From the IMG/VR virus record IMGVR_UViG_3300045988_013117: 44,370 nucleotides of DNA, one strand, 5' to 3'. This document shows positions 4,051 to 44,370 of the stretch, in pieces. The position numbers and the translations under genes are program-made. The notes beneath the pieces are model-generated. The model was given only the letters and a program-made list of their open reading frames with translations. It did no database searches and was not told the DNA's origin. Source of the stretch: a virus. Numbering within the stretch: the stretch's first letter is position 1; every line of letters begins with the position of its first letter.

Positions 4051-5802
4051 TTATTTCATCCCCTTCATCAATTCCAAAAGCTGTTTACCAAATTCCACCG
4101 CAACGGGACGGGGGTTCTCACTATCCATCCATTCACAGAAGCATTCAGCAAACCATTCTTGGGCATCTTGGGTGGCGTAGCCGCTCACCGCTGTTCTGGT
4201 GTCGGAAACTTTCAACCCACAAGCCTTCATCACCTTGGGGCGAAGATAAGCGGAAACCTTCTTGGCTCTCCATCCATTCAATCCGGCCAACTGGTGGATC
4301 ACAGAAAGGTAATCATCCACCGCATGGCCCAATTCATGGGTGACGATGGAACCATAAGTGGTTCCCGCTGGGTGGAAACCGTGGGCCAAATCATTTGCAT
4401 AAAGTCTGGTCAATTTCTCCACATCGGAAAAATAGGAAGTGTTCACGGCAATTCCACCACGCCCCAAGCCATAAGAACATTGGGCATAAGTTCCACCGGC
4501 CAAGCGTTGGGCATTGATAGAATTCAGTTGCCCCCGCAATTCAGGAAGGCGGTTGAACACATTTTCATGGGCCTTGAAAATAGCCTTGGCGGTATCAACA
4601 TCACACCCTTGCAAAGAAAGAAGCTGGTTCCCATCAAATGGGCTTCCATCTGGAAGGGTAGTCTGATAAAACCACCCTTGTTCTTTCATTAAGGCTTCCA
4701 CTTCTTCAACTGTGGTGCATTCATCCACCGTTTTCATTATAGCGCCCATGGTGGCAACCGTCAAACCATCCTTCACGCCATCCACAAAAGCCTTCTTCCA
4801 TTGGGTAAAGGTCATGTTGGCGGGAACATAGTAAACTTCCCCATCAGCATTCCGGGCGGCTCTTTCGCCTTCCATATCGTCATAATAGGGGCAAGTGGTT
4901 CCCCGGCAATTCGGGTGGAAGGGGGGGACAGTCACACCGGGTTCATATTGGGAAAGTGGGATCACCTTTCCATCAAGGGGCTGACAGATAGGGCAAGTAC
5001 GGGAATCCAGCGTTTCCACAATTTCAATCTGTTCAACTCCCAAATCTTTATACATTTGGGTTTTGGAAACAGCATTGAAATAGGTGGTTTCTGTGTGAAC
5101 CAGCCGCCTTGCCTTGTAGCGGGAAGTTCCAAACTTCTTTTGAATGGCCGTGATAATCTTGGAAGGTGGATCACCCCGCAACATTCCTTGAATCAGTTCC
5201 TTGTTTACGGTGTCCACCAATTCCGCCTTATTCGTCCAACAGCGATCCCGGAAGGTCTTTCCGTCTGTTGTCCAAGGTTTTGAAAGCAATGTTTCAAGTT
5301 TCTTCTGGTTCAGGGCGGTGAAATCCCATCCAAGGCCAATTCCCTTCTGAACTTCAAAGGCTCCACGGGTGTACCCATTGGAAATCACATCCTTCAGAAG
5401 ATCATCAATCCCATCCACCTGATTTCCATACAGAAGTTCAATCTGTTGTTGAATCTGAAATTGGATAGCTTCAAGGCGGCTGACATGAAAACGGGTAGAA
5501 GCGTTTTCCAGCTTCTTGATCCATTCTTCTGAAAGGTTGGCTTTTTGTGCGGCCTTCACATACTGTTCCGCTGTCCACTTGAATTCTTCAAGCTGTCCGG
5601 CAGTCAGCATTTTCCGGGCTTCTGCCAAAGTAACATTGTTGTTGGTGGCAAAACGCTGATACCAACTTTCAATGTCCTTTTGAACTGTTTGTTCAGCTTC
5701 CCGGTAAATATCTTCAAGGCTCTGAAGGTATTCATCAGTTTGTTTGTGGGCCGCTTCTTCAAGAACGGAGAACCGGCCCCGCCAATAGTCAGCATTTTTC
5801 AC
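4051..5802 (-). CDS. Minor head protein (SPP1 gp7 / Mu F family) fused to a C-terminal HExxH zincin metallopeptidase-like domain
   Basis: The N-terminal ~310 aa carry the MuF hallmarks (TETTYFN..., DSRTCPICQPLDG, PPFHPNCRGT). The C-terminal part carries HELGH (4324..4338) and a downstream QEWFAECF, similar to the HEFGH...EFFAEAF arrangement of anthrax lethal-factor-like M34 peptidases as I recall it. Confidence 0.8.
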   Translation of the reverse strand: MKNADYWRGRFSVLEEAAHKQTDEYLQSLEDIYREAEQTVQKDIESWYQRFATNNNVTLAEARKMLTAGQLEEFKWTAEQYVKAAQKANLSEEWIKKLENASTRFHVSRLEAIQFQIQQQIELLYGNQVDGIDDLLKDVISNGYTRGAFEVQKGIGLGWDFTALNQKKLETLLSKPWTTDGKTFRDRCWTNKAELVDTVNKELIQGMLRGDPPSKIITAIQKKFGTSRYKARRLVHTETTYFNAVSKTQMYKDLGVEQIEIVETLDSRTCPICQPLDGKVIPLSQYEPGVTVPPFHPNCRGTTCPYYDDMEGERAARNADGEVYYVPANMTFTQWKKAFVDGVKDGLTVATMGAIMKTVDECTTVEEVEALMKEQGWFYQTTLPDGSPFDGNQLLSLQGCDVDTAKAIFKAHENVFNRLPELRGQLNSINAQRLAGGTYAQCSYGLGRGGIAVNTSYFSDVEKLTRLYANDLAHGFHPAGTTYGSIVTHELGHAVDDYLSVIHQLAGLNGWRAKKVSAYLRPKVMKACGLKVSDTRTAVSGYATQDAQEWFAECFCEWMDSENPRPVAVEFGKQLLELMKGMK

Positions 5803-5825: not shown

Positions 5826-5900
5826 TGGCTGGGATGGTTGGAATCGAACCAACGGATCAGGGGGTCAAAACCCCTTGCCTTACCTCTTGGCTACACCCCA
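5826..5900 (-). tRNA. tRNA-Gln (anticodon UUG), CCA encoded
   Basis: Hand-folded cloverleaf: acceptor UGGGGUG/CAUCCCA, anticodon stem AGGGG/CCCCU with loop UUUUGAC, T arm GUUGG-UUCGAUU-CCAAC. It closely resembles bacterial tRNA-Gln. Confidence 0.9.
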
Positions 5901-5904
5901 ATAT

Positions 5905-5990
5905 TGGTGCTGAAGGTGGGATTTGAACCCACACGCCTTGCGGCAACGGATTTTGAATCCGCCGTGTCTGCCTATTCCATCCACTTCAGC
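5905..5990 (-). tRNA. tRNA-Leu (anticodon CAA), long variable arm, CCA encoded
   Basis: Acceptor GCUGAAG/CUUCAGC, anticodon stem GCGGA/UCCGU with loop UUCAAAA, a long extra arm (UGCCGCAAGGCGU), and T arm GUGGG-UUCAAAU-CCCAC. Confidence 0.9.
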
Positions 5991-5995
5991 GTAAA

Positions 5996-6070
5996 TGGTG
6001 ACGCATACGGGAATTGAACCCGTGTTACCGCCGTGAAAGGGCGGTGTCTTAACCTCTTGACCAATGCGCC
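5996..6070 (-). tRNA. tRNA-Glu (anticodon UUC), CCA encoded
   Basis: Acceptor GGCGCAU/AUGCGUC and anticodon stem CCGCC/GGCGG with loop CUUUCAC. The body is nearly identical to Bacillus-type tRNA-Glu as I recall it. Confidence 0.9.
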
Positions 6071-30205: not shown

Positions 30206-30607
30206 TCACCCCTTTCTGATCAGGTCAAAGATATGTTGCAAATCTTCAACCGGGGCATTGTAGAAGGCGTAATTCCAAAGCCAATGATCTTCATGTTCCG
30301 GCCTTTTGTATTTCTGACAAAGGGGATCGGCCCAAATCTTATTCCACCGGTTCTGGTGGTTTTTGTCCCGCCGCTCCAACTGGATCAGGATAGCAGATAC
30401 CAAATCGCCCCGTTCCCGCCCCCGGCCATCATCGTTCTGACTGAAGAAGTCAAAAGCGTTTTGGCTGGTGATCCCGCAAATTTGCTTCCCATTCCACATA
30501 AGAAAACCGCCCTGATTGATCAAGGCGGTTCCATACGGAATATTTACATGGCCGCAAATGGCATCAAACTTGGCCCGTTTTCGGGCGATATACCGGTTAT
30601 ACTCCAT
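30206..30607 (-). CDS. Hypothetical protein
   Basis: A 133-aa ORF with no recognised motif. Confidence 0.5.
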   Translation of the reverse strand: MEYNRYIARKRAKFDAICGHVNIPYGTALINQGGFLMWNGKQICGITSQNAFDFFSQNDDGRGRERGDLVSAILIQLERRDKNHQNRWNKIWADPLCQKYKRPEHEDHWLWNYAFYNAPVEDLQHIFDLIRKG

Positions 30608-31214
30608 CGGTTACTTCCTCCCATCCATATACGCCGGGTTCCCAAACATTGTTATCCACCGTAGAAGTCCAATGCTTCCCGTTGTGGCTCACCTTTGCGC
30701 CCAAGGAATACGAATCGTGCGCTCCGATGGGGGCGATCCATTCGGGCCATTCTTCAGCCGGATCACTCGTTTTGCTCCAAAGGCTGGGGGCTTCCGGGGG
30801 TGTCCAACCTTCTTGGGAAGTGTGATCCTGAACACACTTGTAAAGGGTTCCATCATAGCGCCGGATTTGTCCGGTTTTGTAGTTGATGGGGAATGCCCAT
30901 TCTGCAAAAAGTTCAGCGTGTTCCGCCGCTGTCACAAGGTCAATGCTTCCGGCTTCTGTCAAAGTCACAAACATGATCCCGCCAGTATCGGTGGCCTTCT
31001 GGATTTCTGCACCCCCATCAGTTTCTTCCAAGCTGACAGTTTCCAGCCCTTCCAAGCTGTCCCGGCCAAGCAAATGGTACGGTGTCCCTTCAAAAACAAT
31101 GCCCGAAGCATTCTGCTCCGGGCAAAGGACATAGCAACCATTTTCGGCCTGCATGATATAGTTCAATTTTTCGGTCAAGCCAAGGCTTGCACCATCTTTG
31201 ATGATTCTGAACAT
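30597..31214 (-). CDS. Tail-associated protein with two CBM5/12-like carbohydrate-binding repeats
   Basis: The C-terminal repeats are YKTGQIRRYDGTLYKCVQDHTSQEGWTPPEAPSLW and YSLGAKVSHNGKHWTSTVDNNVWEPGVYGW. Confidence 0.6.
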   Translation of the reverse strand: MFRIIKDGASLGLTEKLNYIMQAENGCYVLCPEQNASGIVFEGTPYHLLGRDSLEGLETVSLEETDGGAEIQKATDTGGIMFVTLTEAGSIDLVTAAEHAELFAEWAFPINYKTGQIRRYDGTLYKCVQDHTSQEGWTPPEAPSLWSKTSDPAEEWPEWIAPIGAHDSYSLGAKVSHNGKHWTSTVDNNVWEPGVYGWEEVTDGV

Positions 31215-32347
31215 TTTGCACCTCCGAAAAAGATAGCATGATAAAGCCGCCGCAACTTCAGCAACCGTCCATGATCATTGAAGTTTCGGTAATATGCGCT
31301 TTGACATTCCATGTACTGTTCAATATCAGAAAACAACCGCTTCCCTTCCACAAACTCCCGGTGGAACAGTTTCAACTTTCGTCTTGCCCGTTTCACACCG
31401 TCCCGGCTTCCATTCACCTTGATCTTTCCCGTTTCCGTCAGCGTGAACCGTGCCTTGCAGAATCGGAAGGGTTTTGTCAGGGGAATGATTTTGCATTTGC
31501 GTTTGTTCACCCGTATTCCAGCGGCTTCAAACCGCCGAACAATTTCATGCCCAAGTTTCTTCAGGGCTTCCACATCTGGAAGGATTAAATAATAATCGTC
31601 CATGTAGTGGCCGAAACAGTGAACCCCGGCTTGGCATTTGATCCAATTATCTATTGCGCTGGGCATTGCCACCATTTCCTGTTGGGATGGTTCCACGCCC
31701 AAGGGCAAGCCCCGGCCCGGTGTCGGGCAAGGGGATGTTTGGATCACCATATCAGCCAAGGCCCGAAGATCAGGGTTTGGAATGAATTCTTGGTGCCGCT
31801 GATATAAAAGCGCATGGGGCGCATTTGGGAAGAAGCCCTTCAAATCCAACAGCAACACAGCACCTTCCCGGCCATAGCGCCGGAAGTGCCAATGAAGCTG
31901 TTCCTTCAATCGCCTGAAATGCCAGTGAAGCCCCTTGTTCCTTTGGCTTGCCCCATTGTCATAGATCATACAGGGGTTATACAACGGAATCAGAACTTCA
32001 TTACAAAGAACCTTGTGGATTTGCCGATCAGTGATATGTGGGGCATCTATGGGGCGAACCTTTCCACGCTCCCGCAAAGTAAAATGGGTACACTTCATAG
32101 GCTTCCAAGCCTGATCCAAAACATTCTTCCGGCGCTTGGCTGTCCCGGAAAACAGGTGGGCTTCAAAGTTTTGAACACTTTGCTTCCATCGTACCCCGTT
32201 ACAGCATTTGCGCCCATAGAAGAACATCTTGCGATAGCTGAAAACCTTGTTGATTGGCCCAAGTGCATCACACCGGGCCTGTTTTCTTTCTTGCCGCTTG
32301 ACTTTGCGGCGCTGGTATCTTGCTTCATGCCGTTCTTGGCTTGTCAT
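31175..32347 (-). CDS. DGR reverse transcriptase
   Basis: It carries the RT motif YMDDYYLI and the DGR-type LGxxxSQ motif (LPLGVEPSQQ). It lies directly downstream of the TR. The start is uncertain: M at 32347 is preferred, but the ORF is open to 32446. Confidence 0.9.
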   Translation of the reverse strand: MTSQERHEARYQRRKVKRQERKQARCDALGPINKVFSYRKMFFYGRKCCNGVRWKQSVQNFEAHLFSGTAKRRKNVLDQAWKPMKCTHFTLRERGKVRPIDAPHITDRQIHKVLCNEVLIPLYNPCMIYDNGASQRNKGLHWHFRRLKEQLHWHFRRYGREGAVLLLDLKGFFPNAPHALLYQRHQEFIPNPDLRALADMVIQTSPCPTPGRGLPLGVEPSQQEMVAMPSAIDNWIKCQAGVHCFGHYMDDYYLILPDVEALKKLGHEIVRRFEAAGIRVNKRKCKIIPLTKPFRFCKARFTLTETGKIKVNGSRDGVKRARRKLKLFHREFVEGKRLFSDIEQYMECQSAYYRNFNDHGRLLKLRRLYHAIFFGGAKCSESSKMVQALA

Positions 32348-32590
32348 AATAAAAAAGTATTCGCCTTTCGTACAGATATTTTGTAGGGTGCCATCTAATC
32401 TGCTTTGCCCCGACACATGAAATGGGTTAGACACATACCCCACCATGCAAGAAGCGTCCGTGTAAGGGCATCAAAGGGCAGTTTTAGGGATTTACACCCA
32501 AGGAAGTGCAACTCCTTTTACATCGGTCGTCTTTCACCTGAAATCCAAAAGCCGGTTTTCTGCTACTCCATTTGACCGTGTATATTTGCA

Positions 32591-32715
32591 AAATCCGGGC
32601 CGCAACCCACCAGAATTGTTAGCGTTATTGTTGTTGTAGTTGCCATCAGTCCAAACAATCATGAAATTGTTATTGTTGTTGTAATTAGGAGAACGAAGGC
32701 CCCACCAAACCGCCG
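32591..32715 (-). repeat. DGR template repeat (TR)
   Basis: A gap-free 125-nt alignment to 33394..33518. All 13 mismatches fall at TR adenines on the coding (minus) strand. The TR is rich in AAY codons. Confidence 0.9.
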
Positions 32716-32749
32716 AAGGAAACATTCACAGTTGCACACCTAATGAAAA

Positions 32750-33214
32750 TCATGCTTTTTGCTTTCCGCTTACATTTTTGATAGCCCCTTTCAGAAGTTC
32801 ATTTTCCTTGTCGATCAGCTCACCTAAATTTTGGGCCATTTTATCCAGCTTTTCCACGGCATCTTTGGATTTTACCGCAACGCCTTTGGAATTGGTAAAT
32901 GCCCCTTCCGGGTTCTGATTCAGGATCAAATAGCAATGGGTCAGGCGCACATCAAGCGCCATAAGGGAAGCCCTTGCTTCAAGCAAGTGTGCCTTCCGCA
33001 ACTCAATCCGCTGGGAATCTGAAGGGTAAATGCTGTTGGCTTTTTCAGCGTGATCAATCACTTCCCCGGCCAGCTTTGCAACCGGTTCAGCAATCAGACG
33101 GGAATACCTTGCAGATAAGCGGGTAAGAAAATTGATGGTTTCAATGTAAATTTGGTTGGCCGTGTTGATGAACTCGGCCTTGCTTGTGGTTCTTTTTTGC
33201 TTCAATACTGACAT
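32750..33214 (-). CDS. avd: Avd-like accessory variability determinant (four-helix-bundle protein)
   Basis: A 154-aa predicted all-helical basic protein positioned between VR and TR, as in the Bordetella phage BPP-1 cassette. A GGAAAGGGGTGA SD precedes the ATG. Confidence 0.7.
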   Translation of the reverse strand: MSVLKQKRTTSKAEFINTANQIYIETINFLTRLSARYSRLIAEPVAKLAGEVIDHAEKANSIYPSDSQRIELRKAHLLEARASLMALDVRLTHCYLILNQNPEGAFTNSKGVAVKSKDAVEKLDKMAQNLGELIDKENELLKGAIKNVSGKQKA

Positions 33215-33244
33215 AGATTCACCCCTTTCCGGGCCATCTTTTCA

Positions 33245-33273
33245 AGTATAGCACAAAACCACGAAAAAGCCAA
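33245..33273 (-). promoter_or_regulatory. Candidate promoter for avd-TR-RT: TTGGCT-17-(TGc)TATACT
   Basis: On the minus strand the -35 is at 33273..33268 and the -10 at 33250..33245, with a TG extension. Confidence 0.4.
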
Positions 33274-33336
33274 TTTTCAAAATTTGCGTCGGGCGCTTAC
33301 GCGCCCATTATTTTTTTTATTTTGTCCGTCCCGGAA

Positions 33337-33356
33337 CCGCCCCCTTGCGGGGGCGG
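33337..33356. other. GC-rich 8-bp hairpin with a 4-nt loop just downstream of the VR
   Basis: The sequence CCGCCCCC-TTGC-GGGGGCGG lies 28 nt beyond the tail-fibre stop codon. Confidence 0.6.
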
Positions 33357-33384
33357 GATGGGGGCCGGATCATCCTGCGGGGGA

Positions 33385-35241
33385 TTAGGCGGCAAAGCCG
33401 GGCCGCAACCCACCAGAATAGTAAGCGTAATAGTTGGTGTAGGTGCCATCAGTCCAAACAATCACGAAATCGGTAGTGTTGGTGTAATAAGGAGAACGAA
33501 GGCCCCACCAAACCGCCGTGGACACGGCGGAATGTTTATAGGCAACCTTACTGTTACCAGCCTTATAGTAATCATACTGAAGTTGACTATTCTGTTCATA
33601 TTGATTGGCCCAATTTCTTGTGCCGAACACTTCAAACTCTGCCAGATCAAACAGATAATCAGTTGTAGCAGTAACCGCCCCGGAAGTATTGGAAGCATTA
33701 CCGGTGTTGTCGGTGTACTTGGTTACAGGTTGCATCACGGCTCGCAAGTCAGCGGGAAGCGCCGCCATAAGGCTGTTGGAAACCGGGCTGGTAGGGGTTC
33801 CACTGTTCCCGTACAGGGTAGAACGCTTATAACAGGATTTCCAACCACCGCTATTGCTGTTGTTCGGGTTCCAGTTAAAATATCCGTTACTACTCTGACC
33901 GCTGTTATATTGAGCATCACACAGGGCAACCGGGGTGGTTCCAATTTTTCCAATCTGGAAGTGAATTCGGTTGCTTCCTTCTCTGGAAGCGTTATGATTG
34001 AAGCCCAAGATGAAAACATTGATGGAAAGATTACTGAAGGTGGTGTTTCCAACCTTGCCATTGATGGTGATGGGCTTCATATCACCAACCGCCCAATAGT
34101 TGGCCCCTTGTCCGGCGCTACTCACTTGCCGGATAGTTGCCCAACTGTTTTCAGAAAGGGTTCTGGTTGGGTATGTCACTTTCACAGAACAGGTCTTACT
34201 TGCGGGGGCTGTGTGATTGGTGCCAGCGGCCACGCTGACGGTCACTGTGGCGTTTCCGTTGGCTTTGGCGGTAACAGTAACCACATTCCCGGAAACGCTC
34301 ACAGAAGCCACGCTGGGGGCGCTGGAAACGGCGCTGATAACACCATCCCCGGCCCGTGTAACTGTGATGGTGTCGGTCTGCTTGCCAACATTCAGATCAA
34401 TGGAAGATTTGTTCAAAGAAAGGCTTCCAGCGGCCTTTCCAATCGTCCAAGCAACAGTTTTGGCGTTGGTGGTTCCATCGTTCCATTTGTAGTTTGCGCC
34501 GGGGGTGAAGGTGGCGTTGTAGCTTCCGGCATTGGTGCCGCTGGTAGTTCCCCCAAGGGTCATTTTCCCGGAATCATAGTTGGCCCAAGTGGGGCTTTGG
34601 GCGGCTCCGGTATAGGTAAGGCTTCCACTTTGAGAAGGAACCGGCATAGAAGCCCTTCCAATCGTCCATGTGACTTCCCGTGCCGTTTTGCTTCCATCAC
34701 TCCATTGGTATTTTTCTTTCGGGGTGAAGGTTGCCGTATAGGTTCCCGCATTGGTGCCGGTAGTCACACCGCCAAGGGTCAAAGCGTTGGGATCATAGCT
34801 GTTCCAAGAAGGGCTTTGGGCTTGCCCGTTATAGGTCAGGGTTCCGTTCTGTGTGGGAACCACATTGATAGTGAATGCAATGCTGTTCACAGCTTCCAAG
34901 GCCGCATCAGCGGCATCTTGGGCATTCTGCGCCGCTTCCACACAGGTGTTGATCTGCCCCAACAGATAGGGGTGGGCTTCTTTATCTTCATTGTGGGTTT
35001 TTACCTTGCTTTCGGCGGTTCCCTTCTGGTCATAGTTCATTTCAGGAAGTTGTTCAGCCGGAACCTTCCCATCTACCAAATCGGCCTTGTTTTTCTGCCC
35101 GTCCTGAAGGTTTTTGATACCATCGGCATTTTCTTTCAGGGCGGCATCAATCTTGTCCATGTTGCCGTTCTGAACTTCAACATCATAAAATTCAGAAGCA
35201 AGGGGCTTGGTCAATTTGTAATTTTCGGTTTGATTTGCCAT
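33385..35241 (-). CDS. Tail fibre / receptor-binding protein, DGR target (VR at the C-terminus)
   Basis: A 618-aa ORF following the XkdU-like gene. It contains two tandem ~70-aa repeats (34432..34866), a Big_2-like Ig domain, and a C-terminal WWGLRSP...GLRPGF variable region. Confidence 0.85.
   Translation of the reverse strand: MANQTENYKLTKPLASEFYDVEVQNGNMDKIDAALKENADGIKNLQDGQKNKADLVDGKVPAEQLPEMNYDQKGTAESKVKTHNEDKEAHPYLLGQINTCVEAAQNAQDAADAALEAVNSIAFTINVVPTQNGTLTYNGQAQSPSWNSYDPNALTLGGVTTGTNAGTYTATFTPKEKYQWSDGSKTAREVTWTIGRASMPVPSQSGSLTYTGAAQSPTWANYDSGKMTLGGTTSGTNAGSYNATFTPGANYKWNDGTTNAKTVAWTIGKAAGSLSLNKSSIDLNVGKQTDTITVTRAGDGVISAVSSAPSVASVSVSGNVVTVTAKANGNATVTVSVAAGTNHTAPASKTCSVKVTYPTRTLSENSWATIRQVSSAGQGANYWAVGDMKPITINGKVGNTTFSNLSINVFILGFNHNASREGSNRIHFQIGKIGTTPVALCDAQYNSGQSSNGYFNWNPNNSNSGGWKSCYKRSTLYGNSGTPTSPVSNSLMAALPADLRAVMQPVTKYTDNTGNASNTSGAVTATTDYLFDLAEFEVFGTRNWANQYEQNSQLQYDYYKAGNSKVAYKHSAVSTAVWWGLRSPYYTNTTDFVIVWTDGTYTNYYAYYSGGLRPGFAA
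33394..33518 (-). repeat. DGR variable repeat (VR)
   Basis: The counterpart of the TR. It encodes residues ~575-617 of the tail fibre. Confidence 0.9.
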
Positions 35242-44196: not shown

Positions 44197-44370
44197 TCAA
44201 TTCACCTTTCCTTTCTTGAAAAAATTCTGAAGCAAGCTGTCCACCTGCTCCATTGTGTATTCCTTGCCATCTTCCAGAAGGACGGACAGAAGATCACGCC
44301 GCTTGGCGTATCGCTGGAAGGTCAGGATGTTTCTTTTGGTGAAAACCGGAACCGGGGTGGAAACGGGCGG
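44197..44370 (-). CDS. 3' portion of the 73-aa junction-spanning ORF (44294..44370 duplicates 1..77)
   Basis: The TGA stop is at 44199..44197, 1 nt before the sheath ATG. The same frame continues from 125..1. Confidence 0.55.
   Translation of the reverse strand, partial: PPVSTPVPVFTKRNILTFQRYAKRRDLLSVLLEDGKEYTMEQVDSLLQNFFKKGKVN
44294..44370. repeat. Terminal overlap, identical to 1..77
   Basis: Direct comparison of the two ends. Confidence 0.95.

Follow-up and report, generated by a model that had tools for sequence, protein, structure and literature searches.

Evidence for a complete diversity-generating retroelement of the Faecalibacterium/Roseburia phage type in a myovirus of gut Oscillospiraceae

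Gene content of the cassette

The IMG/VR virus record IMGVR_UViG_3300045988_013117 is a stretch of 44,370 nt (hereafter the window, meaning the whole stretch at its full length), and positions 31175-35241 of its minus strand carry the parts of a diversity-generating retroelement (DGR). In their order along this strand these are the gene for a 618-aa target protein that ends in a variable repeat (VR), a small gene for a 154-aa accessory protein, a template repeat (TR), a structured RNA of the Rfam family RT-2, and the gene for a reverse transcriptase (RT) (Table 1). An earlier note, made from the letters of the window, had read this locus as a DGR with the gene order of Bordetella phage BPP-1, and this interpretation is borne out by the repeats themselves, by public contigs carrying the same cassette, and by the affinity of the RT. 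Overall, we are highly confident that 31175-35241 is a complete DGR of the Faecalibacterium/Roseburia type in a 44.3-kb myovirus of gut Oscillospiraceae.

Table 1. Features of the DGR cassette and its surroundings, with positions in the window
Feature	Position (nt)	Strand	Remarks
DGR target, 618 aa	33385..35241	-	N-terminal region, two tandem Ig-like repeats, Ig-like domain, C-terminal DUF6273
Two tandem 219-nt repeats, ~75% identical	34433-34861	-	Ig-like (weak He_PIG) modules upstream of Big_2-like domain
DUF6273 domain, predicted C-type-lectin-like	33385-34170	-	aa 358-618 of target; Pfam DUF6273 at aa 460-616
VR	33394..33518	-	Last ~42 codons of target; residues 576-616 of 618; variation confined to 33419-33489
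GC-rich hairpin/cruciform	33337..33356	-	8-bp stem, 4-nt loop; 37 nt beyond VR repeat end
Promoter-like site TTGGCT-17-TATACT with TG	33245..33273	-	Upstream of accessory gene; from consensus scan
Accessory gene, 154 aa	32750..33214	-	Between VR and TR; pI 9.43; phrog_30516; good ribosome-binding site
TR	32591..32715	-	33 adenines, 13 AAY codons; mutable adenines across 32616-32686
Structured RNA, Rfam RT-2 (RF03077)	32343..32580	-	238 nt; 165.1 bits (gathering score 40)
DGR reverse transcriptase, 390 aa from ATG 32347	31175..32347	-	Open frame extends to 32446 (423 aa)
205-aa protein, two CBM_5_12 carbohydrate-binding modules	30597-31214	-	40-nt overlap with RT 3' end
Three tRNA genes (Gln-TTG, Leu-CAA, Glu-TTC)	5826-6070	-	Cluster between Mu-F-like gene and portal gene

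Template repeat and variable repeat

Both a script and a repeat search aligned the TR (32591-32715) with the VR (33394-33518) over 125 nt without gaps, reproducing the alignment of the earlier note at the same coordinates. The two copies differ at 13 positions (TR positions 32594, 32617, 32620, 32626, 32629, 32634, 32640, 32662, 32668, 32670, 32673, 32679, and 32686), and all 13 lie at a plus-strand T of the TR, that is, at an adenine of the coding (minus) strand. The number of mismatches, the thirteen positions, and the total of 33 TR adenines are the same as first counted, and re-alignment placed mismatches at TR adenines only. By the hypergeometric distribution, a placement of all 13 mismatches on the 33 adenines among 125 positions has a probability of 3.7e-9.

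In the reading frame of the target gene, 16 of the TR adenines occupy the first codon position, 16 the second, and one the third, and a stop codon is unreachable by any substitution of a TR adenine. The mutable codons number 19, and the theoretical repertoire comes to ~6e18 protein variants. The VR, which had been described as the last ~42 codons of the 618-aa target, begins at residue 576, and the translations of the two repeats match those given before, with 12 non-synonymous changes and one synonymous change (GGA to GGC) between TR and VR. A search with both repeat ends found neither a second VR nor a further TR copy in the window.

The synonymous change is the 3'-most mismatch (32594; GGA in the TR, GGC in the VR), and the same A-to-C difference is found in every relative examined, being common to the ten public contigs described below and to Taranis, Pioen, Dulem virus 34, and MT835543. 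We therefore regard it as a fixed difference at the TR/VR boundary and not as a product of mutagenesis, which leaves 12 informative mismatches. Thus, the earlier reading of the mismatches as the trace of past homing holds for these 12, but not for 32594. In BPP-1, cDNA synthesis begins at TR G117, a position 17 nt short of the TR end (bioRxiv 10.1101/2023.10.23.563531), and by analogy the fixed difference probably lies beyond the point of cDNA initiation.

The TR also lies within a 63-aa open frame (32534-32725, minus strand), and one NCBI assembly (L011) calls a gene at the corresponding place (4490-4681) that scores as DUF6273; here the template repeat has been mistaken for a gene.

Variation among related genomes

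In the public assembly index, an accessory protein identical over its 154 aa is found in 827 blocks. We compared ten public contigs from different samples, each of which encodes this identical protein. The TR is identical to that of the window at 125 of 125 positions in all ten contigs, whereas the VR is different in each. Nine of the VRs align without gaps; in these, 30 columns are variable, all of them TR adenines, and none of the 92 non-adenine positions varies. In the same nine VRs, 31 of the 33 TR adenines are changed, and the two that never are sit in the ACT and GAT codons of a conserved WTDG scaffold. The contrast between a frozen TR and a hypervariable VR does not arise from sampling the same genome repeatedly, since the RT genes of the ten contigs differ from that of this phage by 1.1-2.3%. 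An ungapped identity control over the 600 nt upstream of the VR was spoiled by indels between the contigs and was not used.

The adenine bias extends to more distant cassettes. TR/VR mismatches fall at A in 189 of 196 cases across 14 species-representative bacterial genomes, in 15 of 16 cases in the Faecalibacterium phage Taranis, and in 13 of 13 and 16 of 16 cases in two other distant relatives.

Accessory protein in the avd position

The earlier note had, by its position, taken the 154-aa protein for Avd, the accessory protein of BPP-1-type DGRs. Its location between VR and TR and its four helices agree with that assignment, but a direct match to any Avd model was not obtained. With the single protein as query, searches of Pfam, NCBIfam, PADLOC, and PDB sequences found no Avd; the only PHROG that it matches is phrog_30516, which has no annotated function, and phrog_3206 ("Avd protein of DGR"), which BPP-1 Avd (bAvd) matches at E 9e-29, was not matched. 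The family to which the protein belongs is large, with 391 representatives at 50% clustering.

Several results weigh against an Avd homolog. In 49 diverse members of the family, neither PF22296 nor PF05635 gave a match at E <= 1, and the positive control, bAvd against PF22296 in the same library, scored 123 bits. A profile of the 49 members found no Avd in the PDB, and hhalign comparisons of the family with bAvd alone or with a 35-sequence bAvd alignment gave probabilities below 1% (0.35% for the alignment). The corresponding protein of Roseburia phage Shimadzu (orf23) likewise gave no match to the bAvd alignment or in the PDB. Structural matches of the accessory model have marginal Foldseek E-values (0.005-0.2 in the PDB and BFVD), and four-helix bundles are a common fold. 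These results would suit a small phage protein with no relation to Avd that came by chance to occupy the interval between VR and TR, in a DGR lineage able to work without Avd; on this reading, the lack of PF22296, PF05635, phrog_3206, and PDB Avd matches in both hidden Markov model and profile-profile comparisons would be no surprise. Cornuault et al. found no Avd homolog in Taranis (PMC5883640), and DGR lineages without avd have been reported by Wu et al. (PMC5758913). We nevertheless give an unrelated protein only a small chance, in view of the following evidence.

First, members of the family at 34-38% identity still lie between a DUF6273 target with an adenine-mutated VR and the TR/RT-2/RT block, and this position is kept in all 18 species genomes with enough sequence. 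Second, the isoelectric point (pI) of 9.43 is close to that of bAvd (9.55) and typical of Avd proteins in general (9.5 +/- 0.7; PMC5758913). Third, the AlphaFold2 (AF2) model (mean predicted local distance difference test score, pLDDT, 90.8) consists of four long helices, and its best PDB match by TM-score is 2gsc (probability 1.0; TM 0.81 on target/0.63), a PF05635 representative and bAvd homolog (PMC10053308); among the viral structures of BFVD, entries named "Avd-like protein" take ranks 2, 3, 4, and 6 (E-values 0.005-0.06), i.e., four of the top six. Finally, there is a possible transitive link in sequence: in hhalign the family profile aligns with Shimadzu orf23 over 127 columns (25% identity, E 7.5e-5, probability 62%), and orf23, annotated "Avd" by its depositors, itself matches phrog_3206 (E 2.5e-7) and, less strongly, phrog_30516 (E 0.036). 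Of all the comparisons made, those by structure and by PHROG alone connect the protein with Avd. Together, the predicted fold, charge, synteny, and transitive link suggest that the 154-aa protein is likely a very divergent Avd homolog. A non-homologous analog of Avd is a possible alternative.

Although predicted to be disordered (pLDDT <50), the first ten residues of the protein (33185-33214) include a motif, MSVLKxKR, near-invariant across the family down to 34% identity, which we regard as a candidate RT- or RNA-binding peptide. The promoter-like site upstream of the gene, recognized by its sequence, may be the start of a transcript that comprises the accessory gene, TR, RNA, and RT.

Activity of the element

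Judging from its sequence, the DGR of this phage is very probably active. The RT frame with its YMDD and LGVEPSQ motifs, the accessory gene, the RT-2 RNA, the hairpin, and the in-frame VR are all intact, and the invariance of the TR while each VR is unique across contigs implies recent, repeated homing in the lineage. It is unlikely, in our judgment, that the cassette is instead a relic that diversified its VR in the past and is now inactive, for example through regulation or a subtle defect. Such a reading draws on the RT frame being broken by a frameshift or stop in four of the ten near-identical contigs (L008, L015, L016, and L017) and on VR indels in two (a 5-nt duplication in L009; a 1-nt insertion with an in-frame TAG in L015). 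Activity is also judged here from the one consensus sequence of this genome, with the adenine heterogeneity of the VR seen between samples. The broken RT frames, the VR indels, and the reliance on a single consensus count against an active element; the broken RT and VR copies are either decayed copies or consensus errors in a hypervariable region or in long-read assembly.

The notion that the repeats are ordinary paralogues or a gene-conversion tract diverged by normal mutation, to which the resemblance of the 63-aa frame over the TR to the target C-terminus and its gene call in L011 might lend some appeal, is refuted by the confinement of mismatches to the adenines of one copy at the probability given above, by a TR that shows no drift in ten contigs beside VRs that are hypervariable at adenine positions only, and by the avoidance of codon position 3 by the TR adenines.

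Reverse transcriptase

The RT that follows the TR carries both motifs previously ascribed to it, a DGR-type LGxxxSQ (LGVEPSQ at 31682-31702) and YMDD (31595-31606). It matches Pfam RVT_1 and, at E 1.4e-72, phrog_1423, the PHROG that contains DGR RTs (bioRxiv 10.1101/2025.08.05.668817). Among PDB sequence matches up to E = 10, the sole reverse transcriptase is 8ub7 chain A, which can be recognized as the RT of BPP-1 (bRT) by its partner, chain B of these entries, an "Avd" that matches BPP-1 Bbp7. In BLASTP the protein is 26% identical to BPP-1 Brt (E 6e-14), with LGVEPSQ aligned to IGSLTSQ and YMDD to YMDD. In these sequence comparisons the RT groups with the DGR RT of BPP-1, and an affinity to group II intron or retron RTs is not supported. 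An RT of group II intron, retron, or defence (DRT/Abi) origin lying near the repeats by coincidence, to which weak and partial matches to TIGR04416 (group II RT/maturase; 50.7 bits, cut-off 300), Drt3a (22, cut-off 200), and other defence-RT/UG models could point, is refuted by the distance of these scores from their cut-offs, by bRT as the only RT matched in the PDB, by a motif that reads SQ and not SP, and by the lack of any group II intron or retron RNA family in an Rfam scan of the window.

The first 33 codons of the 423-aa open frame (31175-32446) overlap the RT-2 RNA. As the 3' end of this RNA reaches ATG 32347 and the RNA covers the 33 codons upstream, the RT most likely starts at 32347 (MTSQERH...), which is also the form of the annotated RT gene of Taranis. 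Public gene calls for near-identical contigs (L009-L014) give the long form of 419-423 aa, and that start is probably mis-called.

RT-2 RNA between TR and RT

The match to RT-2 is full-length (model positions 1-222) and begins 11 nt after the TR. An RT-2 RNA also fills the TR-to-RT interval of Taranis, Pioen, Dulem virus 34, MT835543, and MT839857, and the same holds for Roseburia phage Shimadzu and MT837512. It was likewise found there in all six contigs with distant relatives of the accessory protein and in each of the 18 species genomes for which the sequence sufficed. By contrast, RF03022 (Phage_DGR), which is found at 104.7 bits in the TR-to-brt interval of BPP-1, has no match at 32200-33400 in this phage, where a scan in E-value mode gave RT-2 and one chance match.

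Weinberg et al. (2017) described a series of RT motifs near RT genes, of which RT-10, the motif that became RF03022, and not RT-2, was linked to DGRs; that other RT motifs belong to DGRs was merely a matter of speculation (PMC5737381). Among the papers that could be searched, we found none that assigns RT-2 to DGRs. In BPP-1, the spacer RNA between TR and RT provides the priming of cDNA synthesis and confines it to the DGR RNA (PMC6182149; bioRxiv 10.1101/2023.10.23.563531). From its position and its co-occurrence with the rest of the cassette, RT-2 is probably the counterpart of this priming RNA. One result speaks against this: a TR:RNA priming duplex like that of BPP-1 (TR117-129:Sp47-56) was not consistently predicted by RNAduplex on seven divergent loci. 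A pairing of UGCAA in the TR flank with a conserved UUGCA of RT-2 was considered as a priming duplex and rejected, as it is not compensated in one of the loci (L003).

Target protein and target-site hairpin

The target gene comes directly after genes for Baseplate_J and Mu Gp48-like proteins, where tail-fibre genes are commonly located. Its homolog in Taranis is annotated "DGR target", and that in Shimadzu is annotated as a tail fibre and has a tail-collar-fibre N-terminus. From gene order and the annotation of the relative, the 618-aa protein is probably a tail fibre or receptor-binding protein. The name "tail fibre" used in the earlier note is therefore a putative one, and its dependence on gene order counts against it. 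The N-terminal 357 aa of the target gave no match in the PDB.

The C-terminal domain is better characterized. An AF2 model of aa 358-618 (261 aa) has a pLDDT of 95.9, and its sole significant match in the PDB is the IgA peptidase of T. ramosa (9qa6; E 7e-7 over 285 columns). The 291-residue N-terminal domain of 9qa6 has been described as having a C-type lectin-like core similar to Legionella Lcl (PMC12237041), and we infer that the match falls on this domain, the aligned region of 9qa6 not being displayed. Further weak local matches of the target domain are to C-type lectins and to the C-terminal domain of Lcl. The match to 9qa6 and the description of its fold therefore suggest that the modelled DUF6273 domain looks C-type-lectin-like, as are other DGR targets; of the two folds proposed beforehand, C-type-lectin or FGE-like, the prediction thus favors the former.

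Downstream of the VR lies a GC-rich hairpin, which reads CCGCCCCC-GCAA-GGGGGCGG on the sense strand. It is kept in most relatives, with compensatory changes in the stem (8 distinct stems) and the loops GCAA, GGAA, GAAA, and GTAA, and its distance to the VR is 27-42 nt in nearly all of them (L016 is an outlier). Hairpins of this class are required for homing in BPP-1 (PMC3240598), and by analogy the hairpin at 33337..33356 is a probable target-recognition element. Two departures from the published description are unfavorable to this assignment: the loop GCAA fits GNRA, but is off the published GRNA at the second base, and the distance of 37 nt is just beyond the published range of 4-34 bp (PMC3240598). 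In a metagenome-assembled genome of an uncultured Clostridia bacterium (L033), the hairpin, 37 nt past the VR, has an identical stem with the loop TTGC in place of GCAA, as if inverted.

The interval between VR and hairpin (33357-33393, minus strand) contains a sequence, CTAATC(C/G)CC(C)GCAG, that spans the stop codon of the target gene. This sequence, conserved in Taranis, Pioen, Dulem virus 34, and MT835543, may belong to a target signal resembling the initiation of mutagenic homing (IMH) element.

Proposed mechanism

What we observe in this phage is the anatomy of the cassette and the outcome of its action; the steps of transcription, ribonucleoprotein (RNP) formation, copying, and VR replacement are modelled on BPP-1. 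In this scheme, a minus-strand operon comprising the accessory gene, TR, RT-2 RNA, and RT would be transcribed, and the TR plus RT-2 RNA would be bound by the RT jointly with the four-helix, basic accessory protein. Synthesis of cDNA would begin toward the 3' end of the TR, with the fixed GGA/GGC difference lying downstream of the start, and the TR would be copied faithfully save opposite adenines, where any nucleotide could be inserted. The cDNA would then replace the VR at the 3' end of the target gene, with homing presumably guided by the GC-rich 3' segment shared by both repeats and, 37 nt downstream, by the GC hairpin with its GNAA loop. Up to 19 codons, 13 of them AAY, might in this way be changed on the putative C-type-lectin-like domain of the protein encoded after the baseplate genes, and the result would be a phage population with differing receptor-binding tips.

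Comparison with known systems

The closest described DGRs are those of the Faecalibacterium phages Taranis, Pioen, and Roos, which have the same cassette (DUF6273 target, small basic protein, TR, RT-2 RNA, and RT) and, like this phage, are myovirus (pro)phages of gut Oscillospiraceae. Protein identities are 69% for the RT, 78-79% for the accessory protein, and 56-58% for the target (residues 121-616), but at the DNA level there is no megablast similarity in the phage collection except for one 4.4-kb fragment. The N-terminal 120 aa of the target differ from those of Taranis, Pioen, and Roos, and the target gene of this phage lies right after the gp48-like baseplate gene. The hairpin loop of the three phages is GGAA, in contrast to the GCAA found here. 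Taranis has an Arc-like open reading frame between the target and accessory genes that this phage lacks, and the TR/VR pair of Pioen can be aligned only with gaps. The published accounts of these Faecalibacterium-phage DGRs (PMC5883640; PMC11792537) report no Avd for Taranis and give no function for the target.

A more distant cassette is found in Roseburia phage Shimadzu (LR596903), with the same gene order behind Baseplate_J and P2_I genes, a DUF6273 target annotated as "tail fibre protein", an RT-2 RNA (145 bits), and an RT that is 35% identical to that of this phage. Its accessory protein is shorter (136 aa) and, unlike the 154-aa protein, matches phrog_3206 directly. Shimadzu also has a second, remote VR, as opposed to the single VR here. 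Mutagenesis of the Shimadzu VRs has been observed in virion reads and in mice (bioRxiv 10.1101/575076).

With BPP-1 (mtd-avd-TR-brt), the element shares gene order, adenine-specific transfer from TR to VR, and the position of the VR at the 3' end of a gene for a receptor-binding protein, the latter role being probable here. It also has in common with BPP-1 a C-type-lectin-type fold (predicted in the present case), an accessory protein that is small and basic, a structured RNA that separates the TR from the RT, and, after the VR, a GC hairpin whose loop is 4 nt long. The differences are substantial, however. The RNA is RT-2 (222 model positions) and not the shorter Phage_DGR (127), the accessory protein has no detectable sequence relation to bAvd, the variable domain is DUF6273 in place of the Mtd/FGE-like domain, and the hairpin lies 37 nt from the repeat, compared with directly after the mtd stop codon in BPP-1. 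With respect to the RT-2 motif itself (RF03077), the copy in this phage is a full-length, high-scoring member, placed between the TR and a DGR RT.

Thus, the element joins a type already described in Taranis, Pioen, and Roos and, distantly, in Shimadzu, and it is ordinary for gut phages, DGRs of this type being among the commonest hypermutation systems of human-gut phages. Links of RT-2 and phrog_30516 to DGR function are a modest but useful addition: the RT-2 motif, which had no function assigned in its 2017 description, occupies the position of the DGR priming RNA, and Taranis-type elements probably do have their "missing" Avd, in a very divergent form. It is conceivable, at somewhat less than even chances, that the RT-2 RNA and the phrog_30516 protein together form a separate DGR ribonucleoprotein design. 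If so, RT-2 would serve a large lineage of gut-phage DGRs as the RNA for cis-priming and processivity, and "avd-less" DGR lineages would actually carry cryptic Avd-like proteins. DGR annotation pipelines would gain from the RT-2 RNA, the divergent Avd, and the DUF6273 fold, and there would be a second RNP to compare with that of BPP-1.

Genome and neighboring genes

The first 77 nt of the window are identical to the last 77 (44294-44370). Identical ends of this kind are the signature of a k-mer overlap and therefore indicate a complete circular assembly of 44,293 bp. The gene content is that of a phage with a myovirus tail (sheath, tape measure, and baseplate) and includes a terminase, a portal, a Mu-F-like protein, a replication module, and an amidase, in addition to the tRNA cluster listed in Table 1. 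Integrated relatives were found in Pseudoflavonifractor, Faecousia, Faecalibacterium, Colidextribacter, and further members of the Oscillospiraceae.

The gene for the 205-aa CBM_5_12 protein overlaps the end of the RT gene, and in MT835543 and one distant contig (L022) a gene with this domain likewise follows the RT. The 205-aa protein may bind the host or its cell wall as a second such protein linked to the cassette.

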